From: Bacillota bacterium
Lineage (GTDB): Bacteria > Bacillota_I > Bacilli_A > ML615J-28 > CAG-313
Length of the DNA: 61,260 nucleotides
Assembly (NCBI GenBank): GCA_963648435.1
Contig: CAVJDT010000004.1
Coordinates: forward strand, 1-61,260
Direction: 5' to 3'
The number at the start of each line of letters is the position of its first letter. The first letter of the stretch is position 1. The position numbers and the translations under genes were made by a program. Positions 3,730 through 43,924 of the stretch are shown in pieces. Below the pieces are notes generated by a model. It had not been told where the DNA came from, did no database searches, and saw only the letters and a list, made by a program, of their open reading frames with translations.

Positions 3730-3804
3730 ACCCTTCCTAAGAAGCTTTTTTGATATTTTAGCGTTTGAGATTAATAATTACCTTAATAAATAATTTCAAA
3801 CGCT
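3730..3804 (+). repeat. GAGCGTTTGA-family hairpin repeat, copy 1
   Basis: ACCCTTCCTA head (3730-3739), 14-bp hairpin AGCGTTTGAGATTA...TAATTTCAAACGCT (3760-3804). Confidence 0.7.
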
Positions 3805-3843
3805 TCAATAAAGGTTGTAATTTTAGAAGTATAAAAGGATTTG

Positions 3844-3897: not shown

Positions 3898-3975
3898 GTT
3901 GCGAGTCTGCAACCGCACAAAAATGGTTTAAGTACATTAATAGTCACCATAATGGCGTGTCTTAAATTTTTTAAA
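3898..3975 (+). promoter_or_regulatory. Candidate ribosomal-protein L21 leader (5' UTR of rplU-prp-rpmA)
   Basis: About 90-nt UTR between the consensus promoter and the rplU RBS, with stem GCGTTGC-GAGTCT-GCAACCGC. Firmicutes have a known L21 leader at this position. Structure not verified. Confidence 0.3.
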
Positions 3976-7678: not shown

Positions 7679-7682
7679 AATT

Positions 7683-7747
7683 AAACCCTTCCTAGAGCGT
7701 TTGAAATTGAAATAATGCTTAATTATTCATCTCAAACGCTTTTTTTT
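7683..7747 (+). repeat. GAGCGTTTGA-family hairpin repeat, copy 2
   Basis: AAACCCTTCCTAGAGCGTTTGA (identical 22-mer at 14120-14141), then a hairpin closed by TCAAACGCT and T7. Confidence 0.8.
7696..7747 (+). terminator. Terminator after coaX, formed by a repeat-family hairpin
   Basis: AGCGTTTGA...TCAAACGCT outer stem with an extended imperfect inner stem, then T7. Confidence 0.65.
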
Positions 7748-7807
7748 ATCTTTTTTTGTCAAAATATGCTAAAATGAATGAGAACAATTTTTAAGGAAGT
7801 GATTCAT

Positions 7808-13237: not shown

Positions 13238-14161
13238 ATGCGAAAAAAAGGATTATTACTATTATCGTTTATAGCCTATGGCTTATTAATAGCAGGAATA
13301 GTTAAAGTAAAAATATACAAATATGAAAATAGTATTTATACAATTAATTCTAAAGCAGTTTCTTTTTCAGTTGATGCATCAAGTGCCATTGTTTATAATG
13401 CAAGTAATAAGGAAATATTATATCAAAAGAATTGTCATGAAAAATTATTCCCCGCATCAATTACGAAAATTCTAACTTGTATAACAGCTCTTGAAAACTA
13501 TGAATTAGATGATTATGTTTATGTAACATCAGAAATGATTAATACCATTGGTTCTAAAATCTATTTAATGCCTGGAGATTATGTAAAAGTAGAAGACCTA
13601 TTACTTGGTTTAATGTTAAATTCGGGAAATGACGCGGCTAAAGTTCTTGCGATGCATTTATCAGGAAATGAAAGTGATTTTATTTCTTTAATGAATAAAC
13701 TTGCCAAAAAAATTGGCATGAATGATTCAACCTTTAATAATCCATCAGGTTTAGATAATGAAACACTTAATTATACAACAGCCTATGATATGGCCATCCT
13801 TACCGCTTATGCTATTAATAATCAAGAATTTCGAAAAATCTTTGGTACTAAAGCAAAAGTAATTGAACTAGAAAACCATTTTTTATATTTACATCACAAG
13901 CATAAATTAGTTCAGTATTATAGTTATGTTTTAGGTGGTAAAACTGGTTATACGGAAAAAGCCGGAAGAACCTTAGTTACTGTCTATAATCAGAATAATA
14001 TTGATTTGATTGTGGTTACTTTAAATGCCCATAATGATTGGGAAATTCATCAAAATTTTTATCATTTATTTTTAGAAAAGAAAGAAGAGCAGACTAATGT
14101 TTTAACTTTTTTCATTGTAAAACCCTTCCTAGAGCGTTTGAGAGGTAAAAAAGATGATTAA
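13238..14161 (+). CDS. dacB: D-alanyl-D-alanine carboxypeptidase (S11 PBP), sporulation-type by context
   Basis: N-terminal TM. SxxK (SITK), SGN and KTG motifs. Followed by spmA-spmB as in B. subtilis. Confidence 0.75.
   Translation: MRKKGLLLLSFIAYGLLIAGIVKVKIYKYENSIYTINSKAVSFSVDASSAIVYNASNKEILYQKNCHEKLFPASITKILTCITALENYELDDYVYVTSEMINTIGSKIYLMPGDYVKVEDLLLGLMLNSGNDAAKVLAMHLSGNESDFISLMNKLAKKIGMNDSTFNNPSGLDNETLNYTTAYDMAILTAYAINNQEFRKIFGTKAKVIELENHFLYLHHKHKLVQYYSYVLGGKTGYTEKAGRTLVTVYNQNNIDLIVVTLNAHNDWEIHQNFYHLFLEKKEEQTNVLTFFIVKPFLERLRGKKDD
14120..14141 (+). repeat. GAGCGTTTGA-family repeat, copy 3 (head only, inside dacB 3' end)
   Basis: 22/22 identity to 7683-7704. Encodes ...KPFLERL of the DacB tail. 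Confidence 0.8.
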
Positions 14162-14744
14162 TTATGTTTGGAGCGTTCTCTTAATTGTTGGTATCATTAT
14201 CAGTATCTTCACCGGAAAGATTAATGATATGGGAAATATTATTTTAAATTCTTCAAATGAAGCTTTTGAAATATTTTTTAATGTTGCCTTGATCATTCTT
14301 TTTTGGGGTGGTGTTTTCAATATTGCAATTGAAAGTGGACTAATTAAGAACTTAACTAAGTTTTTAAGGAAACCATTATTAAAACTTTATCCTGAACTTA
14401 AAGCAGATGATATTGCCTTAGAATATATTTGTTCTAATATTATTGCTAATCTTTTAGGCCTTGGTTCAGCCGCGACCCCTCTTGGTTTAAAGGCTTTTGA
14501 AGAATTACAAAAAATTAATCCTCACAAAGAAAAACCATCGCGCAGTATGGTTACGTTTATCATTATGAACGTTAGTTCTTTTACATTATTTCCAACTACA
14601 ATTCTTGGAATTAGAACTATGTATAAAGGAACAAATGATGTTTCTTTGTTAACTTTAATGATTATTGGAACATTAGTGTCTTCCCTTTCCGCAATTCTTT
14701 TAGACCGACTTGTATATTTAATTGATAGGAAAAAAGCCAAATGA
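14154..14744 (+). CDS. spmA: Spore maturation protein A (nucleoside-recognition/Gate-domain membrane protein)
   Basis: Polytopic membrane protein. Overlaps the dacB stop by 8 nt. Position in the dacB-spmA-spmB operon. Confidence 0.8.
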   Translation: MINYVWSVLLIVGIIISIFTGKINDMGNIILNSSNEAFEIFFNVALIILFWGGVFNIAIESGLIKNLTKFLRKPLLKLYPELKADDIALEYICSNIIANLLGLGSAATPLGLKAFEELQKINPHKEKPSRSMVTFIIMNVSSFTLFPTTILGIRTMYKGTNDVSLLTLMIIGTLVSSLSAILLDRLVYLIDRKKAK

Positions 14745-15238
14745 TTATTATAGTTTTTTATATTTTATTTATTATCTTGTATGGACTATTTAAAAAGGTT
14801 AATACTTTTGATGCTTTTGGAAGAGGTATTGAAAATAATTTTTCAACTTTAAAAAACATTTTTCCAACAATTATGGTATTAATTATTGCTATAAACGTGT
14901 TCGTAAATAGTGGAATCGTCGAAATAATTAAGGATCTTTTCCCAAACACATTCTTCGCTCCTGAGCTTTTTTTGCAAGCATTTCTTCGCCCTATCTCACA
15001 TAGTTCGGCGCTTGTCATGATGATTAAGACCTTTGAAAACTATGGTGTTAACTCAATAACAGGTAAAATCGCCTCAATTTTACAAGGTTGTAATGATACC
15101 ACCATTTATATCATCGCTTTATACTTTGGAAGTATAAAAATGACTAAAATTGGAAAAACTTTGAAAATTGGACTGTTAAATGACCTTATAACGTTTATTT
15201 TCGTGTTTTTACTTTGCTATCTATTTTATTCCAAATAA
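14741..15238 (+). CDS. spmB: Spore maturation protein B
   Basis: ATGA overlap with spmA. Hydrophobic 165-aa Gate-domain protein. Confidence 0.8.
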   Translation: MIIIVFYILFIILYGLFKKVNTFDAFGRGIENNFSTLKNIFPTIMVLIIAINVFVNSGIVEIIKDLFPNTFFAPELFLQAFLRPISHSSALVMMIKTFENYGVNSITGKIASILQGCNDTTIYIIALYFGSIKMTKIGKTLKIGLLNDLITFIFVFLLCYLFYSK

Positions 15239-16128: not shown

Positions 16129-17024
16129 TGTATTTAAATAATTTTGTTGAATTTGAACTTAAAATTATGGAATGGTTTAACCATTTAGGAAACAAATTTT
16201 TGGATATTTTCTTTTACTTAATAAGCGAACTAGGAGGTCCCATCATTATTATTGCATTAGTCGGAATAGTATATTGGTGTTTTAATAAGGAAAAAGGAGA
16301 AAAGCTAGCCTATGCAATCATTACTTCAGTTTGTCTAAATGGTGTCTTAAAAAGTTTTATAAATAGAAAAAGACCATTTGAGTATAATGAAAATTTACGT
16401 AGATTAAAAGATTCACCACTTTCTGATGGGGCAACGGGAACTAGCTTTCCAAGTGGACATTCTCAAAATGCTGGTTCAATTTATACATCAATTACTTTAA
16501 TGAATAAGAAGAAGTGGGTTAAAAGCGTTTGTATTATTTTAATCGTACTAATACCTTTTTCACGCCTTTACTTAGGGGTTCATTTTCCTAGTGATGTAGT
16601 TGTTGGACTTATATTAGGCATACTGGTTGCGATTTGTTCATTTTTTTTACTTAATAAATTTGAAAAGTATAAAATGATAATTTACCTTGTAACTATCTTT
16701 ATCTTTACACCCTTTATTTGTTTACCAATTGCCGAACATGATTTTGCTCAAGGGTATGGTCTTTTGATTGGGTTTACCGCCGGAGTATTTGTTGAAAATA
16801 AATGGATAAATTTTAAAAGAGCCACATCACCACTAAGAAAAATCATTCGATTGCTTGTTGGTATTTTTATGGTTGGAAGCTGCTTTTTGTTAACAAGGCT
16901 TATTCCTCAAAATATTAGACATATTAAAATAATTACCATTATTATTTATGGCCTAATATCATTTGTAGCTATTGGAATTGTTCCCATCACATTTAGGAGC
17001 GATAAACATCCTCAGCGAATTTAA
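16128..17024 (+). CDS. PAP2-family membrane phosphatase
   Basis: Acid-phosphatase motifs NRKRPF, PSGHS, SRLYLGVHFPSD. Multiple TM segments. TAATG overlap with rluB. Confidence 0.75.
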   Translation: MYLNNFVEFELKIMEWFNHLGNKFLDIFFYLISELGGPIIIIALVGIVYWCFNKEKGEKLAYAIITSVCLNGVLKSFINRKRPFEYNENLRRLKDSPLSDGATGTSFPSGHSQNAGSIYTSITLMNKKKWVKSVCIILIVLIPFSRLYLGVHFPSDVVVGLILGILVAICSFFLLNKFEKYKMIIYLVTIFIFTPFICLPIAEHDFAQGYGLLIGFTAGVFVENKWINFKRATSPLRKIIRLLVGIFMVGSCFLLTRLIPQNIRHIKIITIIIYGLISFVAIGIVPITFRSDKHPQRI

Positions 17025-17065
17025 AGCAGATAGTGCCAAGTTAAAGCATTGTTTGCTTTTTTTCC

Positions 17066-17094
17066 TTGCATTTTTTGTTAATTTTAGGTATAAT
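17066..17094 (+). promoter_or_regulatory. Sigma-A promoter of the Fic-like gene
   Basis: TTGCAT - 17 nt - TATAAT, 15 nt before ATG 17110. Confidence 0.6.
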
Positions 17095-17109
17095 AATAAT
17101 GGTGATTTT

Positions 17110-18177
17110 ATGAATAATTTTGAAGCTTTAAGTCAATACATGATTCCAAGTAATATCTTAATAAAGATGTTAGAAGTATATAAAAGTATTGGTCAAAATA
17201 AATATCTAGAAGAAGAATTAGGTGATGCCAAATACTATTTAATTGAACAAAATATTGAAAGAGAAACTTTCATTATTGCCAGCACTTTAAATCTAAATAT
17301 TTCCGATAACCGGATGCGATTAATTATTACAAAGAATTCTAATCCTAACAATCAAGAAGAAAAAACTCTACTAGGAATTAAAGAAGTTTTAAAAATAATC
17401 CAAAAAGATGCCCCTGAACACACTTTTAATGGTAGTGATATTTTAGGTTACTTAAACCGTATTTTTGGAAAAAACTCTCATAAATTTAGCAATAAAAATT
17501 ATGATGAATTACTTGGGGTACGCAGTAAATTAACAAAACCAGTTAGTATGCGTCTTTCATATGAGAAAATGCTTGAGAATTATCATCTTAATGTAACCAA
17601 AGAAACATTTGAAAAACTATATTTAGCCATTGTTGCTTACTTAGAGATGGATTTAATGAAACCATATTCAGCCCATAATGAACTTGCTAGTTTACTTGCT
17701 TTATATTATATGTTAATAAGATCTAATGTAAATGTTTTTTACTATACTAGTTTTTTTGAAAAAATCATAACCAATAAAGATAGTTGGAATAATGAAAAAA
17801 GACTAAGTTTTATTAATTTTCCAACTAGTCATCTCCAATTGAATGGTTTAATCAACATAACTTTTGATATGGTTCTTAATTCATACCAAGAGTTAAAAGC
17901 CATAATTCGTGAAAAAAGTTTTGATAAACGGATGTATAAAGGAGACGGAATTGAACAAACAATTGCACGGTTACCTAGTACTTTCTCAAAGGAAGATATA
18001 AGAGCATATCATCCTGATGTTAGTGATTCAACGATAAACCGAGCTTTGTTTAAATTAAGAGATGAAAACTATATAATGCCACTTGGAAAGGGAAGAAGTG
18101 CAAGATGGGTAAAACTTGTAAAAGATAATAGTCCCAAAAACATTTTTGGATATAATTATGAAGAAAATGAAAAGTAA
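17110..18177 (+). CDS. Fic-fold protein with degenerate active site and C-terminal winged-helix domain
   Basis: Start set at ATG 17110, downstream of its own TTGCAT-17-TATAAT promoter (ORF-track 16972 overlaps the PAP2 gene). KPYSAHNELASLL occupies the place of HPFxxGNGR. C-terminus STINRALFKLRDENYIMPLGKGRSARW is wHTH-like. Confidence 0.5.
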   Translation: MNNFEALSQYMIPSNILIKMLEVYKSIGQNKYLEEELGDAKYYLIEQNIERETFIIASTLNLNISDNRMRLIITKNSNPNNQEEKTLLGIKEVLKIIQKDAPEHTFNGSDILGYLNRIFGKNSHKFSNKNYDELLGVRSKLTKPVSMRLSYEKMLENYHLNVTKETFEKLYLAIVAYLEMDLMKPYSAHNELASLLALYYMLIRSNVNVFYYTSFFEKIITNKDSWNNEKRLSFINFPTSHLQLNGLINITFDMVLNSYQELKAIIREKSFDKRMYKGDGIEQTIARLPSTFSKEDIRAYHPDVSDSTINRALFKLRDENYIMPLGKGRSARWVKLVKDNSPKNIFGYNYEENEK

Positions 18178-18970
18178 TTACCACACACATACATATTTAT
18201 GTAGACATGCGGAGGGAAAGCCAATTGACTATGTTAAAATAGCAAATGATTTAGGCTATCACACAATCGGCATAACCGACCATGGGCCAATAATTCAAAC
18301 AATCAAAGATCAAATTATAAGTCGCCGAATGAATTTTAACGAATATTATAATCTTTATCTGCCTGAGCTTGTAGATGCCCAAAAAGCTTATCCAAATATT
18401 AAAGTATTAAAAGGCCTTGAACTTGAATATTTTGAAGAAATGAAAGAATATTATCCTAAGTTTTTAGAACAATTAGATTACCTTGTACTTGGACAACATT
18501 TCATTCATCATCAAAATAAAATAATAAGTATCTATAGTGATGAAATTGATGCTTCCGCCATCAAATCATATGAAAAAGATGTTGTTAAAGCAATTGAAAC
18601 GGGATACTTTAAGATTTTAGCTCATCCTGATCTTTATTGTTGGACTTACAATAAATGGGATGAAGCCGCCATCTCGGTTGCTAAAGCCATCATTTCATCC
18701 GCAATCCAAAACAATGTTTATTTAGAAATTAATGCCAATGGAATCAGAAACTGTAGTCGTAAAGAACATAAATATTTATTAAGTAATGGTCATATCAGTT
18801 ACAGTTACCCTAAATATGAATTTTGGAAACTTGCAAAAGAGATGAATGCAAAAATCATTATTGACGATGATGCCCACTTTTTTAAGCACATGAATGATGA
18901 TGCAACATTAGAAGCAATTGAACTTGCGGATGAATTAAACATTGATGTATTAGATAAAATTGATTTATAA
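18146..18970 (+). CDS. PHP-family (HisJ-type histidinol-phosphatase-like) phosphoesterase
   Basis: NYHTHTYLCRHA metal-binding N-terminus, PHP-domain His/Asp pattern. Start ambiguous (ATG at 18146, 18158 or 18167). Confidence 0.7.
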   Translation: MDIIMKKMKSNYHTHTYLCRHAEGKPIDYVKIANDLGYHTIGITDHGPIIQTIKDQIISRRMNFNEYYNLYLPELVDAQKAYPNIKVLKGLELEYFEEMKEYYPKFLEQLDYLVLGQHFIHHQNKIISIYSDEIDASAIKSYEKDVVKAIETGYFKILAHPDLYCWTYNKWDEAAISVAKAIISSAIQNNVYLEINANGIRNCSRKEHKYLLSNGHISYSYPKYEFWKLAKEMNAKIIIDDDAHFFKHMNDDATLEAIELADELNIDVLDKIDL

Positions 18971-19017
18971 CCGTAATCAGAGCGTTTGAATTTTAAAAAC
19001 TAATATAATTATTAATT
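18969..19017 (+). repeat. GAGCGTTTGA-family repeat, copy 4 / left inverted repeat of the dif region
   Basis: AACCGTAATCAGAGCGTTTGAA (18969-18990), overlapping the PHP stop codon, followed by a 26-mer that recurs at 19212-19237. Confidence 0.8.
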
Positions 19018-19060
19018 TGAATTTTATTAAAGGGTCTATAATTAATAGCGTACAAATATT

Positions 19061-19083
19061 CCAGGAGAAATCCTGGTTTTTTT
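19061..19083 (+). terminator. Rho-independent terminator after PHP gene
   Basis: CCAGGA-gaaa-TCCTGG followed by T7. Confidence 0.75.
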
Positions 19084-19211
19084 ATCTTTAATTTTTTAAG
19101 TTTAACTTATTAAATAAAAAATTAAAACTAAATTATTAATTTAAGCTTTAATGTGATCAACAAATTAGTAACAATTAGTTATGCATTAAACCTTTGTTAT
19201 AGAAGATGAAA

Positions 19212-19237
19212 TTTAAAAACTAATATAATTATTAATT
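19212..19237 (+). repeat. 26-nt exact duplicate of 18992-19017
   Basis: TTTAAAAACTAATATAATTATTAATT in both places. Confidence 0.85.
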
Positions 19238-19501
19238 CAACTTGCAAATTAATTACAGAATCAAGTATGAAGCTAAAAGAAGCCTATATTCAAACGTTTA
19301 TAACTATGTTGATAAATTAAACATTAGCTATAAAGAAGATGAAATTTAGGTTGTTTTTGCCACTTAATAAATATAGTCATGATTTTTAAAATGATGTAGT
19401 TTATTTATTTAAAATTAGTTGAATTCGACAAATAAATACTCCATATAAGAAGTTTGCTACTATTAAATGCTTTATTTCGTCTATTTACACTTATGCGTTT
19501 T

Positions 19502-19529
19502 ACTTCCTATAATATATATTATGTTAACC
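19502..19529 (+). other. dif: dif chromosome-dimer resolution site (Xer recombinase target)
   Basis: ACTTCCTATAA-TATATA-TTATGTTAACC. 25/28 match to B. subtilis dif as recalled (ACTTCCTAGAATATATATTATGTAAACT). Right arm 9/11 to the E. coli XerD arm. Located at the + to - gene-polarity switch. Confidence 0.8.
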
Positions 19530-19690
19530 AATAAAAAAGTAAAGTAAAACCGAAATAAATTAACAATTATTTATTAACGTTGATAACTATATGAAATGTG
19601 GATAACCTATTTAAAACTATATCAGTATCTTTTACTTTAATAAAATAAAATCTATTATTTGTCGGTTTCTATACTCATTAAATTAAAATC

Positions 19691-19746
19691 TGAATTATTA
19701 ATTATCCATCTTTTTTAATTTCAAACGCTCAGATAACGGTTATTTT
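19691..19746 (-). repeat. GAGCGTTTGA-family repeat, copy 5 (inverted orientation; right IR a)
   Basis: The reverse complement of 19720-19741, AACCGTTATCTGAGCGTTTGAA, is 20/22 to 18969-18990. Preceded by the AATTATT arm. Confidence 0.8.
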
Positions 19747-19948
19747 TATAGCTAATCAACAAATCGATTAATTTATTTCATTTTTCTATTGATCCATATT
19801 TTAGCAATTCAATAAATAATTATTCTTTCATTATTTTTTATATGTTTTAAAAGGATTATTTAAATTAATATCTTAACTTATTAATTAACATAGTCCAATA
19901 AAATATCAAAACCTTGTTTTTTAAACTCCCGTTAAAATAGTTCAATGC

Positions 19949-19997
19949 GTAATTATTCAGCTTTTTTAATTTCAAACGCTCTAATAACGGTTATTTT
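19949..19997 (-). repeat. GAGCGTTTGA-family repeat, copy 6 (inverted orientation; right IR b)
   Basis: 19961-19997 is 35/37 identical to 19710-19746, offset 251 bp. The reverse complement of 19971-19992 is 20/22 to 18969-18990. Confidence 0.8.
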
Positions 19998-20166
19998 AAA
20001 TCATTAGCCTTAAATTAGCGCTTTTTTTGATTTAATCTTACTTATGATCAATTATTCATATTTCTGTTATTCTTTTAAATTTAGGCATTATTTTAGGCTT
20101 TATTTTTATAATTGAATAGATAAAATAAAAAAGATATCTTAAATAGATATCTCATAAATAAGTATG

Positions 20167-20189
20167 AAGGCAAAAAACCGCCTTTTTTT
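20167..20189 (+). terminator. Orphan terminator-like hairpin with no upstream gene
   Basis: AAGGC-aaaaaacc-GCCTT followed by T7. The nearest + strand CDS ends 1.2 kb upstream. Confidence 0.4.
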
Positions 20190-20228
20190 GATTTTAATAT
20201 CAAAAGTGATTAATTATTCATTTTAAAG

Positions 20229-20276
20229 AAAAAATGCCAAAAATAAGCCTAAATTAAGCTCAAATTGGCATTTTTT
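20229..20276 (-). terminator. Probable terminator of alpha/beta hydrolase gene (A/T-flanked, bidirectional shape)
   Basis: AAAAAATGCCAA...TTGGCATTTTTT, 8-bp stem with a large loop. Confidence 0.5.
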
Positions 20277-20327
20277 AATACTTTATTAAGTTTCAAAATA
20301 TGTTGATTTTACTTATATTTAATGACA

Positions 20328-21242
20328 TTATTTGTTATAAAACGAAATAATCATATCATATACCTGTTTTTTGATCTCATCAGATTCATTATGAACTTCA
20401 TGTCTAGCATTATCAATTAATTTATAAGTAACATTTAAATTATACTTTTTATAAAGTTTAGCAAGACGTACAATTGATTTGCCATAATTACTCACAGGGT
20501 CTTCTATTCCAGAATAAAGTAAAATCTTAACGTTTGGATTAATGTTTTTAAGATTTTTAGGTTTCACATTCTCACACATCATTTTCGCCATTGAATAAAA
20601 ATAGTTCGCAGAAAAATCCTTGCCACAATATTTATTATTTTCAAATTCTTTAATATTATCTTTATTAATGCTTAACCAACCATATTTTGGATGGTCATTC
20701 TTGAAACGCTTATTAAATCCATCAGTTGTTAATTTTAAGACAAGATTTGAATATTTAATTTTATCTTTGCTTGAACAAAGTCTTAAAATAGGTTTTCCAA
20801 ATGCATATCTACCCCCACCAATATCAGTACCACTTAAAACTACATAATCAAAATCATTAGGATACTTTTGAATATAACGCTGAGCGGCCATGGAGCCCAT
20901 TGAGTGAGCAAATAAACATTTTTTAACGCCAATAAACTTTTCATCATATTCATCTCTGACTAGTTTCATGGCTTTAATAATCGCATCCATAAAGTCATAA
21001 TCAAGGGTTTCACCAATTTCATCTAATGAATTTGCGGAATCACCATGTGCAAAGTGGTCATGGCCTACAACCATGTAACCTGCTGAAACAAAGAAATTTG
21101 CCATTTCATCATATCTTAAGATGTTTTCAGCCATTCCATGAAAGATTTCAATTACCCCTTTTACTTTCATATTTTCCTCATACCATAAGTACGATACAAT
21201 ATTTGTTTTGTTATCAAATTTTAAAATTTTTTGTTCACGCAT
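20328..21242 (-). CDS. Alpha/beta hydrolase (lysophospholipase / monoacylglycerol-lipase-like)
   Basis: Nucleophile elbow AHSMGS, 304 aa. TAATG overlap with deoB. Confidence 0.75.
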   Translation of the reverse strand: MREQKILKFDNKTNIVSYLWYEENMKVKGVIEIFHGMAENILRYDEMANFFVSAGYMVVGHDHFAHGDSANSLDEIGETLDYDFMDAIIKAMKLVRDEYDEKFIGVKKCLFAHSMGSMAAQRYIQKYPNDFDYVVLSGTDIGGGRYAFGKPILRLCSSKDKIKYSNLVLKLTTDGFNKRFKNDHPKYGWLSINKDNIKEFENNKYCGKDFSANYFYSMAKMMCENVKPKNLKNINPNVKILLYSGIEDPVSNYGKSIVRLAKLYKKYNLNVTYKLIDNARHEVHNESDEIKKQVYDMIISFYNK

Positions 21243-22420
21243 TATAGTTCTCCTAACAATGTTTTTCCAATTTTTGGCATTTCAACTTTGAAATTATCAG
21301 AAATAGTAGCACCTACCACCGCGAAAGACTCTAAAACGCCTAAATTATGGCCCCTAATATGTTTATGATACATAATTAGCGGAACATCTTCTCTAGTGTG
21401 ATCGGTACCATGATGAATGGGGTCATTTCCATGGTCAGAAACAACCATCAATAAATCATCATCATGCATTTTAGCCATAAACTCACCTAATTTAACGTCA
21501 AACTCTTCGATAGCTTGATGATACCCAGGTAAATCACGGCGATGTCCATATAAGGAATCAAAATCTACTAAATTAGTAAAGCAAAATCCTGTAAAATCTT
21601 GGTCAAGAAGTTTAATTGTTTGATTCATTCCATCATTATTACTGACCGTGCGATGTGATTCATCTATTCCATATCCATCAAAAATATCATAAATTTTACC
21701 TACAGAAATTGTTTTGTAACCGGCATCTTGTAAAAAATTCAAAACAGTACGGTCAAATGGTTTTAACGCATAATCATGACGGTTAGCCGTGCGTTTAAAA
21801 GTTTCTTTAGAATGACCAACAAATGGACGGGCAATAACTCGGCCGACTTTCCAAGCAGGATTTTCAATTGTTATTTTTCTAGCATATGCACAAATATCAT
21901 ATAACTCACTAAGTGGAATAATTTCTTCATTAGCTTCAAGTTGCAATACTGAATCAGCTGAAGTATAAATAATAATGGCTCCTGTTTTAAGTTGCTCTTC
22001 CCCTAATTCTTTCATTATTTCCGTTCCGCTTTCCGCAATATTACCAATCATTTTACGTCCACTATATTTTTCTAATGCTTCAATTAGTTCTTTGGGAAAA
22101 CCCGTTTTTGTAAATGACGGAAAGGGCGTTGTTACTTTTAAACCCATCATTTCAAAGTGGCCAGTAAGTGTATCTTTGCTACAACTTACTTCCTGAAGTT
22201 TTGCGACAACACCTTTTGGGTTTTCTTGTTTTTTTACCATTTTGTTTTCACAAATATTTCCTATTCCTAAGGCTTCTAAATTAGGTACATTAAATGAAGG
22301 CATTCCTTCCGCAATATGTTTAAAAGTATTAGCCCCTACATCATTATATTCTATCGCATCCTTAGCTTCTCCAATTCCCATTGAATCAGTTACAATTACA
22401 AAAATTCTTTTAAATTTCAT
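21242..22420 (-). CDS. deoB: Phosphopentomutase
   Basis: MKFKRIFVIVTDSMGIG..., metal-site SDHGNDP. Start at ATG 22420 behind GAGGAG; the ORF-track extension covers the RBS. Confidence 0.92.
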   Translation of the reverse strand: MKFKRIFVIVTDSMGIGEAKDAIEYNDVGANTFKHIAEGMPSFNVPNLEALGIGNICENKMVKKQENPKGVVAKLQEVSCSKDTLTGHFEMMGLKVTTPFPSFTKTGFPKELIEALEKYSGRKMIGNIAESGTEIMKELGEEQLKTGAIIIYTSADSVLQLEANEEIIPLSELYDICAYARKITIENPAWKVGRVIARPFVGHSKETFKRTANRHDYALKPFDRTVLNFLQDAGYKTISVGKIYDIFDGYGIDESHRTVSNNDGMNQTIKLLDQDFTGFCFTNLVDFDSLYGHRRDLPGYHQAIEEFDVKLGEFMAKMHDDDLLMVVSDHGNDPIHHGTDHTREDVPLIMYHKHIRGHNLGVLESFAVVGATISDNFKVEMPKIGKTLLGEL

Positions 22421-22421
22421 C

Positions 22422-23321
22422 TTATTTATCTCCTCTCGGGTGGGCACTATTATATACAGATTTTATTTTTTGCTTACTTAAATGCGTGTAAATTTGAGTT
22501 GTTGAAATATCCTCATGACCAAGCATTTCTTGAATATAGCGAAGATCAGTTCCCGCTTCTAGTAAATGGGTTGCAAAAGAATGACGCAAAGTATGAGGGG
22601 AGATTTCTTTTTCAATCCCCGCATCTTTTGCAAGTCTTTTAAGTATTAAGAAAAAACTTTGTCTTGAAAGCGGTTGACCCTGATTATTAAGAAAAAGATA
22701 ATTATTATCCTTACCATTTTTAATTAGTTCAGGTCGATATTTCACAATATAATCACGCAATATTTTTGATGCATAATCATTAATTGGAACAATTCGTTCT
22801 TTACTTCCTTTACCAGTTGTTGAAATCATTTTACTCGTTAAATGTAATTCATTAAGTTTTAAATTAACTAATTCAGATACCCTTAAACCAGTTCCATACA
22901 TTACCTCAATCATTGCTCTATTTCTCGCATTATAAGGGGTGTCATCATTTAAACTGTTTAATAACATCATTACTTCTTCTACTGATAATACCGTTGGAAG
23001 TTTTTTATCAAGTTTGGGAGCACTAATTGAAAGAGTTGGATTATGTTTAGTGTAGTGTTCAAGAACTAAAAACTTATGAAAAGATTTTAAAGTACTAAGT
23101 GCTCTACTACTAGATGAAGGAGAATACCCCATTTTCTTTAAGTATGCTAAATAATTTTTGACATCTTCGGTTGTAACATTTTTAATATCCGTTATGCCCT
23201 TTACATTTTCTAGATAATATAAATAATTTAAAACATCACTGCCATATGACTGAATCGTATTATTACTTTTCATTTTTTCACTGGCAAGATATGTTGTATA
23301 TTCAGTTACTAATTCATCCAT
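22422..23321 (-). CDS. xerD: Site-specific tyrosine recombinase XerD
   Basis: Catalytic residues in GLRVSEL, HTLRHSFATHL, LGHEDISTTQIYTH. xerD-deoB order as at the B. subtilis ripX-drm locus. Confidence 0.85.
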   Translation of the reverse strand: MDELVTEYTTYLASEKMKSNNTIQSYGSDVLNYLYYLENVKGITDIKNVTTEDVKNYLAYLKKMGYSPSSSSRALSTLKSFHKFLVLEHYTKHNPTLSISAPKLDKKLPTVLSVEEVMMLLNSLNDDTPYNARNRAMIEVMYGTGLRVSELVNLKLNELHLTSKMISTTGKGSKERIVPINDYASKILRDYIVKYRPELIKNGKDNNYLFLNNQGQPLSRQSFFLILKRLAKDAGIEKEISPHTLRHSFATHLLEAGTDLRYIQEMLGHEDISTTQIYTHLSKQKIKSVYNSAHPRGDK

Positions 23322-36035: not shown

Positions 36036-37345
36036 TATTCTTCACGCTTTCTTAAAATAAACTGAATGGGAGTACCATCTAAGATAAAGGCTTCTCTTAT
36101 TTTATTTTCAAGATAACGTTTATAAGAAAAATGCATATAATTAGGGTCATTAACAAATAGCACAAAGGTTGGAGGAGTAGTGCTAGCCTGTGTTGCATAC
36201 ATTATTCTTAACCGGTCACCATTAAAAATGGGAGCTTGGTTCGCAATGGTGGCATCTAAAATCACATCATTAAGAATGTTTGTGGATACTCTTCTTGTAT
36301 AGTTTTCATATACTTGTTTGATTTGTTCAAATAACAAATGAACTCGTTCATTCTTTAAAGCAGAAACAAAGACTACTGGAGCATAACTTAAAAAAACAAA
36401 TTGAGCTCTTATTTTTTCAGTATACTCTTTCATGGACTTTTCATCCTTTTTAACTGCGTCCCATTTATTGACAACGATAATTACACCTTTATTTTGTTCA
36501 ATTGGAAGTCCGGCAATTCTTTTGTCTTGTTCTTCTAAAGGCTTAGTACCATCTAAAACCACTAAAACAATACTTGAGCGTTCAATTGCTTTTAGTGCCC
36601 TTAAGACACTATACTTTTCCGCATTCTCATAGATTTTACCTTGTTTTCTAATTCCTGCTGTATCTATTACCACATAGTTTTCGCCATCTTTAACAAAAGG
36701 AGTATCGATAGCATCTCTAGTTGTTCCGGGAATATCACTAACAATGACACGTTCAGTTCCTAAAATAGCGTTAGTTAAAGAACTTTTACCAACATTAGGT
36801 TGACCAATCAAACAAAATTCAACGGCGTTATCATATCGTTTAACTTTCTTTTCAGGTAAAGTAGAAACAATATAATCAAGCATATCACCAAAGCCAATTC
36901 CATGTAAGGCACTTATCGCAAATACTTGTTCAACCCCTAGATTATAAAATTCATAGATATTATCCATGAATTTTAAATCATCTATTTTATTCGCGGCGAT
37001 AACCACAGGTTTAGGAGAACGATGAAGAATATTCATAACATCTTCATCTTCCCTAGTTACACCAACTCTACCATCAACCACTAGAATAATTAAATCAGCT
37101 TCATCAATGGCAAGGGTGGCTTGAGCTCTTATTTCTTCCATAAAAGGAACATTAGATAGTTCAATTCCCCCAGTATCAATTAAGTCAAATTCTTGGTCAA
37201 GCCATTCGCATTTTGCATATAACCGGTCACGTGTAATTCCACTTACATCATCAGTAATCGCAAGTTTCGCCCCCGCAAGACGGTTAAAGACACTAGATTT
37301 ACCAACATTAGGACGGCCAACGATTGCAACCGTTCCTCGTTTCAT
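36035..37345 (-). CDS. der: Ribosome-associated GTPase Der (EngA)
   Basis: Two G domains (GRPNVGKSS and GQPNVGKSS) plus a KH-like C-terminus. Confidence 0.95.
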   Translation of the reverse strand: MKRGTVAIVGRPNVGKSSVFNRLAGAKLAITDDVSGITRDRLYAKCEWLDQEFDLIDTGGIELSNVPFMEEIRAQATLAIDEADLIILVVDGRVGVTREDEDVMNILHRSPKPVVIAANKIDDLKFMDNIYEFYNLGVEQVFAISALHGIGFGDMLDYIVSTLPEKKVKRYDNAVEFCLIGQPNVGKSSLTNAILGTERVIVSDIPGTTRDAIDTPFVKDGENYVVIDTAGIRKQGKIYENAEKYSVLRALKAIERSSIVLVVLDGTKPLEEQDKRIAGLPIEQNKGVIIVVNKWDAVKKDEKSMKEYTEKIRAQFVFLSYAPVVFVSALKNERVHLLFEQIKQVYENYTRRVSTNILNDVILDATIANQAPIFNGDRLRIMYATQASTTPPTFVLFVNDPNYMHFSYKRYLENKIREAFILDGTPIQFILRKREE

Positions 37346-39399
37346 TATTTATCTTCCTTTTTTCCAAATAAATCTAAATTTTTAAATAGATCAGCCATCG
37401 TCGAAGTTGGAGTTTCTGCTTCTTGTTCTTTATAGTATTTATCAAATTCTGCTCTTTCTTTAGCAAGTTCTAAAGCTTTAGCACTTACTAATAATTTAGC
37501 CCGACTTGGATCAACATCTAAGACAAGGGCTTCAACCTCAGTACCAATTGGATACATTTCATCAACTTTACCAATACGTTTTGTTGAAGTTACTTCACTA
37601 ATTGGCATAAATCCTGTTACATTTAGGTAGTTAACTTTCGCACCACGTTCTTCAATTGTGGCAACACTTACTTTTACAACATCACCTTTTTTAAGTTTGA
37701 TGGTACCCCAAGTGTTTTCAACAGTTGCACGGTGAGATAAACTTACACGTTTTTTCTTATCATCAATGGCTAAAACTTGAACTTTAATTGTGTCACCTTC
37801 GTTAAACTTACCATCAAGTTTGTCATTAACTAACCAAGAATATTCACTACGAGGCATTAATCCAGCATATTCTTCAGTTAATTTAATGATTAATCCGGCA
37901 TCAATAATTTTACTAATTACACCTTCAAAAACATCACCAACATGATATTTATCTTTTAATACTTCCCAAGGATGTGGTGTTAAAGCTCTTACAGAAAGAC
38001 CAATTTTATCGCCTTCCATTTTTATAATTTTAGCTTTTACGGTGTCATTTACTTTATATAAATCACTGGCAACTTTAACCATTTTATGGCTCATTTCCGA
38101 TACATGTAATAAACCAGTTAAACCATTAAATGCAACGATAGCTCCATAAGGTTTAACATCAATTACTGTACCTTCAATAATATCACCAACACTTATTTTA
38201 GATAAAGCTTCTTCTTTAGCTAATCTTTGCTTTTTCTTCATTGCAAGAATACTTGATACTGTAACTTGCATTTTATCAACATTAACATAAGTCACAATAA
38301 CATCAAGAGTTTGACCAACTAATTTTCTTAAAGCTTCTTCATTTAAATCAACATTTTTAATTGGTAAGAATGCTTTTAAATCATGATAAAGCACATCAGC
38401 ACCAATTTTTGATACTCTTGAGACTATAACTGAAATAATTTCATCCTTTTCTTTTAATTCTTCAAAAACTTTTAATTTTGCTTTTTCTGCTTCTAGTTTC
38501 GTTGATAAAATGTAAAGTGGTTCACCAGTTTTACGATCTTTAGCTATTTGCTTAACTTGGGCTTCAAACTCTTGACCTTCGTTATAATTATCTCTTAATT
38601 TTTGACCTTCAACATAGCCTGATAAGTCATTAGGATAAATAACTGCCTTTTCGCCTCCATTTAATTCAAGATAGACAGCATCTTTAGTAACATTTAAAAT
38701 GCGTCCTTTTACATTTTGTCCTTCATAAATTTTTTCATTGCTCATAATTTTAAAGCCCCTTTCACTTACTAAATTAATAATTTCATTAACAACTTCTTCA
38801 ATTGTCATATTTGAAGAATCAATTATAACAGCGTCACTCGCAACTCGGAGTGGACTAATAGCCCTTGTTGAATCTTTGGTATCGCGAACGATTATCTCTT
38901 TAATCGTTTCTTCCAAACTTTGTACAACACCTTTTTCAGCTCGTTCCATCATTCTCCGATAAGCTCTACATTCCACTGTTGCATCAAGGTATATTTTTAA
39001 ATCCGCATTAGGCAAAACTACCGTACCGATATCTCTACCATCCATTACCACATTTTTTGAGTTACTTATTTTCCGTTGATATTCAACTAAAAATTCTCTA
39101 ACTACTTTTATTTTTGAAGGAGTTGAAACTTGATTAGTAACATCAATTGACCTAATGGCTTCACTGACATCTTCATGGTCTAAGATAACCCGGCCATTTT
39201 CAATGTCTAAATAAGTATCTTTTAAAAATTCATAACTTTCTTCTTTCTCTAAGTCTACCCCAAGTCTTAAAGCTTTAAGCGTAACCGCACGGTACATTGC
39301 CCCCGTATCTATGTACTCAAAGTTTAAGCGTTTAGCTAGAATCTTCGAAATGGTAGATTTACCCGCTCCAGCAGGTCCGTCAATTGCAATTTTAAACAT
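37345..39399 (-). CDS. cmk-rpsA: Bifunctional cytidylate kinase / 30S ribosomal protein S1 fusion
   Basis: One uninterrupted ORF. N-terminal Cmk (IAIDGPAGAGKST) for about 220 aa, then four S1 OB-fold repeats. ATG 39399 has better SD spacing than ATG 39408. Confidence 0.85.
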   Translation of the reverse strand: MFKIAIDGPAGAGKSTISKILAKRLNFEYIDTGAMYRAVTLKALRLGVDLEKEESYEFLKDTYLDIENGRVILDHEDVSEAIRSIDVTNQVSTPSKIKVVREFLVEYQRKISNSKNVVMDGRDIGTVVLPNADLKIYLDATVECRAYRRMMERAEKGVVQSLEETIKEIIVRDTKDSTRAISPLRVASDAVIIDSSNMTIEEVVNEIINLVSERGFKIMSNEKIYEGQNVKGRILNVTKDAVYLELNGGEKAVIYPNDLSGYVEGQKLRDNYNEGQEFEAQVKQIAKDRKTGEPLYILSTKLEAEKAKLKVFEELKEKDEIISVIVSRVSKIGADVLYHDLKAFLPIKNVDLNEEALRKLVGQTLDVIVTYVNVDKMQVTVSSILAMKKKQRLAKEEALSKISVGDIIEGTVIDVKPYGAIVAFNGLTGLLHVSEMSHKMVKVASDLYKVNDTVKAKIIKMEGDKIGLSVRALTPHPWEVLKDKYHVGDVFEGVISKIIDAGLIIKLTEEYAGLMPRSEYSWLVNDKLDGKFNEGDTIKVQVLAIDDKKKRVSLSHRATVENTWGTIKLKKGDVVKVSVATIEERGAKVNYLNVTGFMPISEVTSTKRIGKVDEMYPIGTEVEALVLDVDPSRAKLLVSAKALELAKERAEFDKYYKEQEAETPTSTMADLFKNLDLFGKKEDK

Positions 39400-39422
39400 A
39401 TTTTTCATACCTCAACTAAAAC

Positions 39423-39498: not shown

Positions 39499-41979
39499 CT
39501 ATACTTCTAAGTCCGCATCATTACGACAAATAACAAAGCTGATTGGTTTACCAGCACTTGTAGGAACAAGTTTCATACCATTATCAGCGATGGCTTTACG
39601 TAAGATTGTATAATCAATCGCGACAAACTCTTGTTCACAACTAATATAACTTGCAAGATCGGAGTTAGCATTTTTAGCGTGAATTACATCTAAAGCAATT
39701 GCTTCATGCATATTTGAACGAACTACTTTTAGATACATCTTTCCAACATGATTTTTCTTACCCTTATTAATTTCTTCAGGTCTAAAGCGTTTAACATTAC
39801 CGCGGTTAGTAAGTAGTAAAATAATATCTTTATCACGAACATACTTTGCCCCTACAACATAATCCGCAGGTCGACCTTTCATTTCAATAGCTTTAACTCC
39901 AAATGAAGCTGCTTCCATAACGCTTATTTCCGAAGCATCATAACGGTTCATAAAGCCATCTTTGGTCGCAATTACGACTTCTGCTTCATCTCCTGTCATT
40001 ATATCAGCACTTACTACTTCATCATCATCACGAAGTTTGGTTGCTTGTAATACTTTAGAGTAACGGTTAACCTTTAAACTAGAAAGAGGAATTCTCTTAA
40101 TTAAGCCATTTTTCGTTGCAATTAAAACAAACTTATTTTCACTAAATTCTTTAACCGGATATGAGAATAAAATTTGTTCACTTGGATCCATGTTAATTAA
40201 AGTACTAACATTATATCCAATATCTTTATGCTTACATTCAGGAATTTTATGAATTGGTAAAAATACATAATTACCTAAATTAGTAAATTGAAGTAAGGTA
40301 TCAGTCGTAGTTACATTGTAAATATCCGAGATGATATCACCATCTTTTAATTTGGTTGGTTCAGTGGTCGCGGCGAAAGCTTTTTTGCTTAATCGTTTTA
40401 AATAACCATCATGCGTAACGATTAAAATAACATCTTCACTAGCAATAATTTCTTCCGTTTTAACTACTACTTCATCAACTACTTCTTCAATTTGGGTTTT
40501 TCTTTCCACGTTAATAATTGATTTAGTGACATTCATTTCTTTAACAATTTCTTTAATTAAGTTTTTTTCACTGCTTAAGATCTTAGTTAATTTAACAATT
40601 TGATTTTCTAAATCACTACGTTCTTGTTTTAAGGCAAAAATATCAGTGTTAGTTAAACGATATAATTGTAACATAACAATTGCTTCGGCTTGGTTTTCTG
40701 TAAAACCATATTTGGAAATAATGTTTTCTTTGGCATCAGTTTTATTCTTGGAATTGCGAATAGTGGCAATAACTGAATCAAGAATTGAAACCATTGAAAT
40801 TAAGCCATCAACAATTTCCAAACGTTTCTGGGCTCTAAGTAAATCAAAGTTACTACGATTAGTCATTACTTCTTTTTGATGAGTTATGTAAGAATCAAGA
40901 ATATCCAATAATCCCATTTGCATTGGTTTACCATAACTAATTACAACCATATTAAAGTTATAAGAAATTTGTAATTTCGTATATTTAAATAAGACTTGTA
41001 AAATAGTTTCCGGATTAACATCTTTACGAACATCAATGACGATACGTAAGCCTTGACGGTCTGTTTCATCACGAATGGTCTTAACGCCATCAACATTTTT
41101 ATTTTCAATCACATCGCTCATTTCTTTTAATAATTGAGCTTTATTAACTTCATAAGGAATTTCCGAAATTATGATTCGAGAATCACCCTTAAATGGAACA
41201 ATTTCGGTTTTAGCCTTAATGATAACTTTACCACGGCCGGTTTTATAAGCATTTTTTAAGCCTTCTAATCCTTGGACAATGCCCCCAGTGGGAAAGTCAG
41301 GACCTTTGACAATGTTTAAAACTTCATCAAGGGTACAATTAGGATTAGTCATCCGTAAAATACAAGCATCAAGAATTTCACCAGGATTATGAGGTGGAAT
41401 CTCGGTTGCATAACCTGCAGAAATACCATTAGCCCCATTAATAATGATATTAGGAAACTTAGCAGGAAGAACAACTGGTTCAAGCTCTTCATCATCAAAG
41501 TTAGGCATAAAGCCAATTGTTCTTTTATTTATATCTTCTAATAATAATTCCGCATATTTACTCAGTCTAGCTTCCGTATAACGCATTGCGGCGGCAGGGT
41601 CACCATCAATACTACCATTATTTCCGTGCATATCAATTAGAGGTAATAAAATTTTAAAGTCTTGGGACATTCTAACCATCGCATCATAAACGGCCGTATC
41701 CCCATGAGGATGGTACTTACCAATTACATCACCGACAATACGAGCACTTTTCTTATGAGGCTTATTACTAGAAAGCCCTAATTTATACATTGCATATAGA
41801 ATACGTCTTTGAACCGGTTTTAAACCATCTCTAACATCAGGTAAAGCCCGGTCTTGAATAATGTACTTTGAATAACGACCAAAACGGTCTCCCATAATGT
41901 CTTCAAAACTTTGTTTTAATAAAGTTTCAGTTGCAAATCTATTTATTTTACTTGTTATATTACTTCTTCCACTATTCAT
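39499..41979 (-). CDS. parC: DNA topoisomerase IV subunit A
   Basis: [12 protein letters not shown], active-site [10 protein letters not shown]. parE-parC divergent from plsY as in Firmicutes. Confidence 0.88.
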
Positions 41980-43924
41980 CGGTATCTATTTCCTCCAGTG
42001 CAAAACCATCATCTTCATAATCAAAGACAACATTATTTTCAATCCATTCACGACGGGGTTCAACATCATCGCCCATAAGGACATTCATTTTTGCTTCCGC
42101 ATCATCCTCATCACCCATTTCCACTTGAATTAAGGTTCGTTTAGCCGGGTCCATGGTAGTTTCCCATAGTTGTTCGGCGTTCATTTCTCCTAGACCTTTA
42201 TAACGTTGAATTTGAACATTTTTTAAATTTCCTATTTTTTCTCGAAGTTCTTCATCAGTCCAAGCATATTGAATACCATTTTTACTTGATATCTTATATA
42301 GAGGTGGGGTCGCAATATAAATGTAACCATTTTCTAGAAGGGGTCGCATATAACGGAAAAAGAAAGTAAGTAATAACGTTTGAATGTGAGCACCATCAGT
42401 GTCGGCATCAGTCATAATAATAACCCGGCGATAATTTGATTTAGAAATATCAAAATCCTTACCAAAACCAGCTCCTACAGCGTTTATTATGGAAACAATT
42501 TCTTCATTTTTCATTACTTCTTCAAGTCTAGTTTTCGCTGTATTCAAAACTTTACCACGAAGCGGTAAAATAGCTTGGAAACTTCGATCTCTTCCACTTT
42601 TGGCAGAACCACCTGCTGAATCACCTTCAACTAGGAATAATTCATTAATTCTTGGGTCTTTCTCTTGAGCTGGGGTTAATTTACCAATTAAATTTGCAGG
42701 TTTTGAAATCTTTTTAGAGATTTGACGGTAATCATCAATGGCTTTACGAGCTGCTTCTTGAGCTTTTACTGCTTTTATTGCATTATTAACAAGTGTATTT
42801 GAAATTTGACCATTTTCAGCCATAAATGATTTAAATTGTTCATACACAACTTGTTCTACTGCGTTTTTAGCTTCTGCCGTACCAAGTTTATTTTTAGTTT
42901 GACCTTCAAATTGTAATAAATCCTCAGGAACTCTAATTGAAATAATCGCTGTTAAACCTTGTCTAACTAAAGGTCCTTCAATATTTGGATCTTTATCTTT
43001 TAAAGATCCAATTATCCGAGCATGTTCATTAAATGCTCTTGTTAATGCGGTCTTAAAACCAATTTCATGAGTTCCTCCATCTTTAGTCCGAATGTTATTA
43101 ACAAAAGATAAAATATTTTCACCATAAAATTCACTACAATATTGAATTGCAACTTCTACCATTATTCTAGAAACAGTACCGGTAAAAAAGACCGGTTCAT
43201 GAATTGGTTTTTTACCTTCAATTAGGGCTTTAATGAATTCCACAATTCCATTTTCATAATGGAAAACATCAGATTTACCCGAACGTAAATCATTTAATTC
43301 AATTTTTAAGCCTTTAATTAAAAAAGCTGATTCCTTTAAACGAAAAGCAATGGTTTTATAATCAAAAATCGTTGATGTGAAAATCTTAGGATCAGGTTTA
43401 AAATGAATTGTTGAACCAGTTCTCCTCGTTTCACCAAGGTTTTTAGGCTTTTCAATAATTTTACCACCATTACGGTAAGTTTGATTATAAATTTTGCCAT
43501 CACGGTAAATTGTAACTGTTAGCCATTCACTTAATGCATTAACAACACTTGAACCAACGCCATGCAAACCACCTGATACTTTATAACCACCATTAGGGTC
43601 AAACTTACCACCAGAATGAAGGGTATTAAATATAACTTGGGGAGTTGGTATTTTTTCCGTTTTATGAATACCTGTAGGAATACCACGACCATTATCAATT
43701 ACTTCAATACTATTATCAGGATGAATATTAACAATAATCTTATTACCATATCCAGATAATGCTTCGTCAATCGCATTATCTACTATTTCCCATACTAAAT
43801 GATGGAGTCCCCTAGCATCAGTTGACCCAATATACATACCAGGTCTTTTACGTACAGCCTCAAGTCCTTGTAAGACCTGAATCGAACTTTCATCATATAC
43901 AGGAGCGCTCTTTGTACTTGCCAT
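41972..43924 (-). CDS. parE: DNA topoisomerase IV subunit B
   Basis: GHKL ATPase plus Toprim ([10 protein letters not shown]), 650 aa. 8-nt overlap with parC. Confidence 0.9.

Follow-up and report, generated by a model that had tools for sequence, protein, structure and literature searches.

The question raised by this locus is whether a 28-bp sequence in the middle of a long gene-free gap is the chromosomal dif site of its genome, and how much such a site says about the replication terminus. The window, which is the whole stretch of 61,260 nucleotides that was analysed, belongs to an uncultured member of the Bacilli with about 30% GC. The analysis indicated that positions 19502-19529 are very probably the canonical chromosomal dif of the Firmicutes type in this organism. 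The call is correct and worth annotating. Its kind is already known and biologically ordinary; sites of this sort have been predicted routinely since 2007-2011. The features of the site and of its surroundings are as follows.

18971-20327, no strand: gene-free AT-rich terminus gap between convergent operons, 1357 bp with 20.5% GC
19061-19076, + strand: hairpin with a T-run, likely terminator of the left (+) operon that ends in the PHP gene (terminator scan and fold of 18965-19090)
19502-19529, + strand: whole dif site, 28 bp, read directly as ACTTCCTATAATATATATTATGTTAACC = ACTTCCTATAA-TATATA-TTATGTTAACC, 11-6-11
19502-19512, + strand: left arm ACTTCCTATAA, putative XerC/CodV-binding half-site, assigned purely by homology
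19513-19518, + strand: central region TATATA, predicted place of strand exchange by homology
19519-19529, + strand: right arm TTATGTTAACC, putative XerD/RipX-binding half-site by homology
20166-20185, no strand: terminator-like hairpin with A and T runs at its flanks, downstream of the right (-) operon (terminator scan)
22422-23321, - strand: xerD, a tyrosine recombinase of 299 aa (Pfam Phage_integrase with an N-terminal SAM-like domain; NCBIfam TIGR02225)

The initial annotation had reported a 28-bp Xer site of 11-6-11 architecture at this place, and direct reading of the + strand confirmed it. The two arms are dyad-symmetric at 6/11 positions, mainly in the inner half (T/CATAA...TTATG). When the window was searched with the site or with the B. 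subtilis dif (Bsdif) at up to three mismatches, a single match was obtained in the 61 kb, and none appeared in 100 dinucleotide-preserving shuffles of the window. The closest other 28-mer on either strand has nine mismatches, and the comparison of 28-mers over the 61 kb revealed nothing else noteworthy that resembles dif or one of its half-sites. A log-odds matrix was prepared from the 22 distinct Firmicutes dif predictions in Table S1 of Kono et al. 2011 (PMC3025954). The site scored 34.9 bits with this family matrix, while its 22 members range from 24.5 to 40.3 bits with a median of 33.7. The score lies 6.9 standard deviations over the window background. The runner-up in the 61 kb reached 8.8 bits; read on its opposite strand, the site had 8.1 bits. 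This gap means that the site is a single copy in the window and that its orientation is unambiguous.

The reference strings of B. subtilis and E. coli were checked in the literature (for B. subtilis including Kono et al. 2011, PMC3025954, and its Table S1). The B. subtilis dif, which was defined by experiment (biochemistry reviewed in PMC5357621) and is served by CodV (= XerC) and RipX (= XerD), has the same 28 bp, 11-6-11 arrangement and TATATA centre. A recount agreed with the identity of 25/28 reported earlier, which includes the whole central hexamer. The left arm is identical at 10/11 positions, the centre at 6/6 and the right arm at 9/11, and the window site carries three substitutions, G9T, A24T and T28C. 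The arm of Bsdif that is matched by the window left arm is the one preferred by CodV (review PMC5357621). The placement in the terminus region, judged for the window from its local features, and the presence of an encoded RipX/XerD equivalog are also common to B. subtilis and the window. Unlike in B. subtilis, xerD lies just 2.9 kb from dif here, and the site is at most 81 bp from the local skew maximum. A counterpart of the B. subtilis RTP/Ter system is not evident in the window, and counterparts of CodV, SftA and SpoIIIE were not seen within its 61 kb.

Closer likenesses are found among the predicted sites of other Firmicutes. The predicted dif of S. aureus, ACTTCCTATAATATATATTATGTAAACT, differs from the window site at 2/28 positions (26/28 identical), and those of B. 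cereus and B. anthracis, ACT[A/G]CCTATAATATATATTATGTTAACT, are each identical at 26/28. The window dif is composed of the S. aureus left arm and the B. cereus right arm. The centre TATATA is the same in all three predictions, and the stretch TTATGTTAAC of the right arm is the same in those of B. cereus and B. anthracis. The final base, C in the window site, is T in the three. The E. coli dif, served by XerC, XerD and FtsK, has the same architecture and is identical at 20/28 positions. Its XerD arm matches the right arm at 9/11, a count given earlier that was reproduced here, and its centre matches at 5/6, whereas its XerC arm has diverged from the window left arm (6/11).

The XerD-type recombinase gene that had been placed 2.9 kb away is indeed there, the start of xerD being 2893 bp from the site. 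The protein scored 370.9 bits against the TIGR02225 recomb_XerD model, whose cutoff is 329.6, and is an equivalog of XerD. Its scores were 329.5 bits on the XerC model, under the cutoff of 335.15, and 121 bits on the XerS model, under the cutoff of 267. Two unrelated genes, deoB and a hydrolase gene, are located between xerD and dif. In B. subtilis xerD presumably adjoins deoB, as it does in the window. An identical XerD protein is on record just for a 4.5-kb Logan contig, and the metagenome SRR13434600 contains an identical xerD contig. Neither XerC/CodV nor another second tyrosine recombinase was found among the scanned proteins of the 61-kb window, and FtsK/SpoIIIE was not found in it.

The gene content marks the window as part of the core chromosome: present are mutS/mutL/miaA, dacB-spmA-spmB-like genes, rluB, lepA, hemW, proS, der, a cmk-rpsA fusion, gpsA, parC/parE, rpoD, dnaG and glyS. 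The parE and parC genes (39499-43924, - strand) lie 20-24 kb from dif, and dnaG-rpoD, glyS, proS and der are also less than 30 kb away. So many core genes near the terminus suggest a small genome. The cmk-rpsA fusion is one ORF of 687 aa (37345-39408, - strand), composed of cytidylate kinase (residues 5-212) and a ribosomal protein S1 with multiple S1 domains (about 220-660). The dacB-, spmA- and spmB-like genes (13238-15238, + strand) encode a D-Ala-D-Ala carboxypeptidase and two Gate-domain proteins, a set which suggests that this low-GC lineage of Bacilli keeps sporulation-related functions. The sole Rfam match in the window is a ribosomal protein L21 leader (RF00559, 49.4 bits) at 3901-3972 on the + strand. 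No tRNA gene was found in the 61 kb.

The gene-free gap in which the site had been placed was also recovered. No intergenic region is longer in the window, whose overall GC is 30.5%, and the gap contains no ORF of 60 aa or more; all ORFs in it have at most 36 aa. The flip of gene orientation from + to - at the site was likewise seen. When ORFs of at least 100 aa were considered and nested ones excluded, all of those left of the gap are on the + strand and nearly all of those right of it on the - strand. Along the window, the G-C skew stays positive as far as about 19 kb and turns negative beyond. An extremum at about 19.5 kb had been expected, and within the window the cumulative G-C curve reaches its maximum at 19421 (81 bp from dif) and the cumulative T-A curve its minimum at 19344. 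Four anti-oriented genes right of dif have a top-strand skew near zero, not about -0.15. Therefore, a part of the skew, roughly half, goes with the coding strand, and the switches in skew and in gene orientation count only partly as separate evidence for the terminus. In addition, Kono et al. 2011 (PMC3025954) argue for termination near dif, not necessarily at dif. The earlier proposal that this dif fixes the replication terminus is reasonable locally, from the skew and the convergence of the genes; dif is the mark of a terminus region and not proof of the exact fork-meeting point.

The polarity of short motifs was considered as independent evidence for the terminus and set aside. The SRS motif of B. 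subtilis and the KOPS motif of E. coli have no copy in the window, where neither GAGAAGGG nor the E. coli KOPS string GGGNAGGG occurs. GAAGAAG occurs in 33 copies on the strand reading toward dif and in one copy on the other over the whole window, and AAGAAGAA shows a bias of 25:0. Nearly all genes run toward dif, and the four anti-oriented genes right of it contain no GAAGAAG copy. A polar motif like the KOPS of Lactococcus would fit such a bias, which is at the same time inseparable here from a coding-strand bias of Glu/Lys codons.

The left operon probably ends in a terminator, and a terminator-like hairpin follows the right one; Rfam gave no match in the gap. The terminator scan detected four sites against 0.2 expected. 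Because the hairpin at 20166-20185 has its better T-run on the + strand, it is uncertain whether it serves the - strand operon.

The site is deeply conserved. An exact 27-mer of it was searched in one genome per GTDB species and was found in at least 120 stretches from at least 120 different assemblies, with one copy in each of these assemblies of other species. Among the matches listed, the taxa are uncultured Bacilli, Izemoplasmatales, Anaeroplasmataceae, Acholeplasmatales and Erysipelotrichaceae, and many of the relatives are genome-reduced Mollicutes-like Bacilli. Cultured Bacillaceae (Bacillus badius, Virgibacillus, Halolactibacillus, Gracilibacillus and others) also have the 27-mer, as do a few MAGs labelled as other phyla. 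Conservation by column was determined with 119 sequences, namely 118 related loci and the window, in which the 27 searched positions are perfect by construction. At position 28, 70 of these 119 sequences have T and 47 have C, among the matches listed. Outside the 28 bp the conservation drops to background at once, with position -1 being T in 83%. The conserved block is thus exactly the dif, since conservation ends right at the edge of the 28 bp. Against the best relative, a metagenome contig with 84% identity (L123), the dif block is 100% identical and the remaining gap mostly 50-85%.

The skew around the site was compared in the 86 loci whose flanks reach 1 kb or more on either side. Among these matches listed, the G-C skew is higher left of the site than right of it in 78/86 (p 1.5e-15), and its sign changes from + to - in 62/86 and in the reverse sense in 5 only.

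The neighbourhood of the site is kept as well, the flanking proteins in related loci being 30-80% identical to those of the window. With the loci oriented by the site, the PHP-family gene is on the XerC-arm side in 38/38 cases among the matches listed. A xerD homologue is found on the XerD-arm side and on the - strand in 36 loci among the matches listed, usually behind deoB. The distance between such a homologue and dif is about 1-5.5 kb in 44 related loci among these matches, three of which (L114, L115 and L121) have a homologue with just 29-32% identity. Kono et al. describe xerD near the origin as the general pattern (PMC3025954), unlike the position close to dif here and in the relatives. 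In the window, the order over 16972-23321 and beyond is Fic-like gene, PHP phosphatase gene, dif, hydrolase gene, deoB, xerD, hemW and lepA, where the Fic-like and hydrolase genes are the variable members. The order from the Fic-like gene to lepA is fixed in orientation with respect to dif in most loci of uncultured Bacilli, Izemoplasmatales, Acholeplasmatales and Anaeroplasmataceae; the loci showing this block include L009, L019, L030, L040, L056, L071, L077, L102, L120 and others. A subset shows dif inverted with respect to xerD-deoB, with these genes on the XerC-arm side (L021, L046, L092, L094, L099 and L107; also L024, L049, L096 and L098). From the gene orders compared, dif was evidently flipped relative to its neighbour genes at least once.

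The Fic-like protein (16972-18177, with the real start probably at the Met at 17110) was unannotated and has no Pfam or NCBIfam match. It is a Fido/Fic-domain homologue (PDB 8uqu_A, E 2.5e-8) with a degenerate catalytic motif, KPYSAHNEL against HPFPDGNGR, and a C-terminal DNA-binding tail like a winged helix. Its gene is near dif in 30 related loci among the matches listed and directly adjoins dif in Anaeroplasmataceae. A function as a terminus protein was considered and rejected, its tie to dif being purely one of synteny.

Several of the matches need separate mention. In L114 (Ectobacillus polymachus), L115 (Peribacillus sp.) and L121 (Virgibacillus subterraneus), a tyrosine recombinase gene is located 240-450 bp from the 27-mer. 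These recombinases are 29-32% identical to the window XerD and may be integrases of an element sitting at dif. Four contigs labelled Muribaculaceae (L003, L017, L048 and L062) and one labelled Prevotella (L042, a 557-kb scaffold) are MAG contigs with 23-33% GC. L042 shows the full Bacilli synteny miaA-dacB-spmA-spmB-rluB-PAP2-Fic-PHP-dif. The labels of these five contigs look wrong, by mis-binning or mislabelling. The matches labelled Planctomycetales and Omnitrophota have 38-49% GC.

The function of the site can be proposed by analogy with the CodV/RipX-dif system of B. subtilis and the XerCD-dif system of E. coli. A recombinase of the XerC/CodV type would bind the left arm ACTTCCTATAA, and the XerD encoded 2.9 kb away would bind the right arm TTATGTTAACC. 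Homologous recombination would fuse the sister chromosomes to a dimer with two dif copies. The two copies would be synapsed at the closing septum with the aid of a translocase of the FtsK/SpoIIIE family, and two sequential pairs of strand exchanges across TATATA would then produce monomers, a mechanism presumed to be the same as in E. coli. The existence of XerC and of the translocase, the pairing of arms with proteins and the recombination activity are thus assumed from these model systems. In Firmicutes, a direct activation of Xer by a translocase lacks demonstration (PMC5357621). A further role may be considered from the XDS sites of B. subtilis, which are bound by XerD and act in the unloading of SMC at the terminus (Karaboja et al. 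2021, as related in PMC11840125 and PMC11894783). As far as these two papers describe them, they are dif-like sequences of the terminus region, several in number, with a function independent of recombination. By analogy, a dif adjoining xerD could also play the XDS role.

Other explanations of the site have to be weighed against this canonical reading. The linked XerD-like protein might act on both arms as a single recombinase, like XerS at difSL of streptococci and lactococci or XerH at difH. The recombinase gene is linked to the site in xerS-difSL and xerH-difH (PMC5357621), and so it is here, at 2.9 kb, and at about 1-5.5 kb in the 44 loci among the matches listed. The failure to find a second Xer gene in the 61 kb and the many genome-reduced Mollicutes-like Bacilli among the relatives listed also fit with one recombinase. 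However, difSL and difH are atypical sites that adjoin their recombinase gene and use one recombinase, whereas the site here is a canonical 28-mer, not the 31 bp of difSL. Its arms are clearly unlike (6/11 symmetric), and its left arm agrees at 10/11 with the CodV-preferred arm of the B. subtilis dif. The recombinase passes the XerD cutoff and stays far below that of XerS (121 against 267 bits), and its gene is 2.9 kb away, separated from dif by deoB and the hydrolase gene. The absence of xerC from the 61 kb says little, because xerC and dif are not normally linked in canonical systems. We consider the single-recombinase explanation very unlikely.

Instead of the native dif, the site could be one at which a mobile element that exploits Xer (IMEX or prophage) is attached or joined, or a site for multimer resolution as on plasmids. 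IMEX elements insert themselves at dif and bring dif-like sites along. The unusual length and the many repeats of the gap would agree with such an origin, as would the distant tyrosine recombinase 240-450 bp from the 27-mer in the three Bacillaceae loci. Against it, the window has no second dif-like site (the runner-up has nine mismatches and 8.8 bits), the gap is without element genes or any ORF above 36 aa, and the exact 27-mer gave no match in 2.9 million viral contigs. Moreover, conserved housekeeping genes flank the site in an arrangement shared by different orders of Bacilli, and the repeats of the gap are without Xer half-sites and are present elsewhere too. These facts leave the mobile-element origin highly improbable. 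Finally, an AT-rich quasi-palindrome may arise by chance in a gap with 80% A+T, or the sequence may belong to a promoter. The promoter scan found a near-consensus sigma-70 match, TTTACA-18-TATAAT (11/12), at 19484-19513, overlapping the left arm. But its TATAAT -10 hexamer belongs to dif, and the relatives lack a conserved -35 region, in contrast to the 27-mer, which at least 120 genomes have without any change. Promoter-like matches in the gap number 17 against 16.9 in shuffles, and chance is opposed by the shuffles of the window, which give no match to the site, and by its 6.9 standard deviations above background on the family matrix. The conservation data effectively refute this last explanation, and its probability is close to nil. 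The canonical two-arm dif is the reading retained.

The gap around the dif site is further marked by a 57-nt AT-rich lineage-specific repeat with the consensus TAACCCTTCTcAGAGCGTTTGAAATTaAAAAAGnTGAATAATTAATAATTCA, which is present in four copies.

18968-19026, + strand: copy L (profile E 2e-9), beginning at the stop codon of the PHP gene
19189-19247, + strand: copy L2 (profile E 1e-9)
19683-19742, - strand: copy R1 (profile E 2e-12)
19936-19993, - strand: copy R2 (profile E 1e-11)

All four gap copies point to dif. Outside the gap, the repeat was found in the window at 7684-7750 (+ strand) and at about 3760-3805. It is present in the loci L123, L132, L122, L084, L102, L044, L077, L030 and L055, with six tandem copies in L102. 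In the related loci, the repeat profile gave 24 matches at E <=1e-6, of which 23 are within 1.2 kb of dif, a zone that holds 28% of the searched bases. Of these strong copies near dif, 21/23 point toward it. The copies flanking dif number 2-7 in the clade. A metagenome scan with the repeat as query brought up closer relatives, L123 and L132, in which the repeat is arranged around dif in the same way, and it also revealed copies away from dif at conserved intergenic spots, for example upstream of mutS.

The structure of the repeat differs between its copies. Complete copies have a 3' arm, TCAAACGCT, followed by a T-run, and form a terminator hairpin with an 11-bp stem (-16.4 kcal/mol, z -4.8); one such complete copy in the window covers 7680-7752. 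The element at about 3760-3805, also on the left side, has two arms, and its match to the repeat unit is on the - strand, opposite to the other left-side copies. The copies in the dif gap are half-elements without the 3' arm and fold no better than shuffles. RNAalifold on 24 repeat copies predicted no pairs, and none of the gap repeats carries a Xer half-site. Three candidate identities were rejected. A structured RNA is contradicted by the RNAalifold result, the shuffle-like folds of the gap copies and the lack of an Rfam match in the gap. A small ORF or toxin peptide is contradicted by inspection, as no frame is conserved between species. A fork trap of the Tus/Ter or RTP/Ter kind is disfavoured by the copies away from dif, the terminator hairpins and the reversed element at about 3760-3805, and a homologue of RTP or Tus was not seen. 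The 57-nt repeat appears to be a lineage-specific dispersed repeat derived from a terminator, lying in sense behind genes, and not a Ter-like element. Its polarity toward dif is attributed to convergent transcription. On the simplest reading, the copies accumulate near dif because the terminus gap tolerates them. Alternatively, the repeat copies together with the AT-rich spacer (20% GC) may form a polar barrier that insulates dif from transcription, forks or SMC complexes. Such a barrier would resemble the Ter fork trap, or the AT-rich SMC boundary surrounding dif in Thermococcus (PMC11840125). We regard the barrier as very unlikely.

Nothing new is learned on Xer recombination itself. At least 120 other species share the 27-mer. 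The site indicates that a low-GC, gut-type lineage of Bacilli has kept a two-arm dif of the classical kind, on which XerC and XerD probably act. Two comparative aspects are mildly new. One is the order and orientation PHP gene-dif-deoB-xerD, which is kept in most loci except the subset with inverted dif, over a span from Bacilli MAGs to Izemoplasmatales, Acholeplasmatales and Anaeroplasmataceae. The other is the terminator-derived repeat that accumulates around dif. For this uncultured organism, the dif site gives the genome a fixed point at the replication terminus and orients its two replichores. It can be used as a landmark in the checking of MAG assemblies and in coverage-based (peak-to-trough) estimates of growth.
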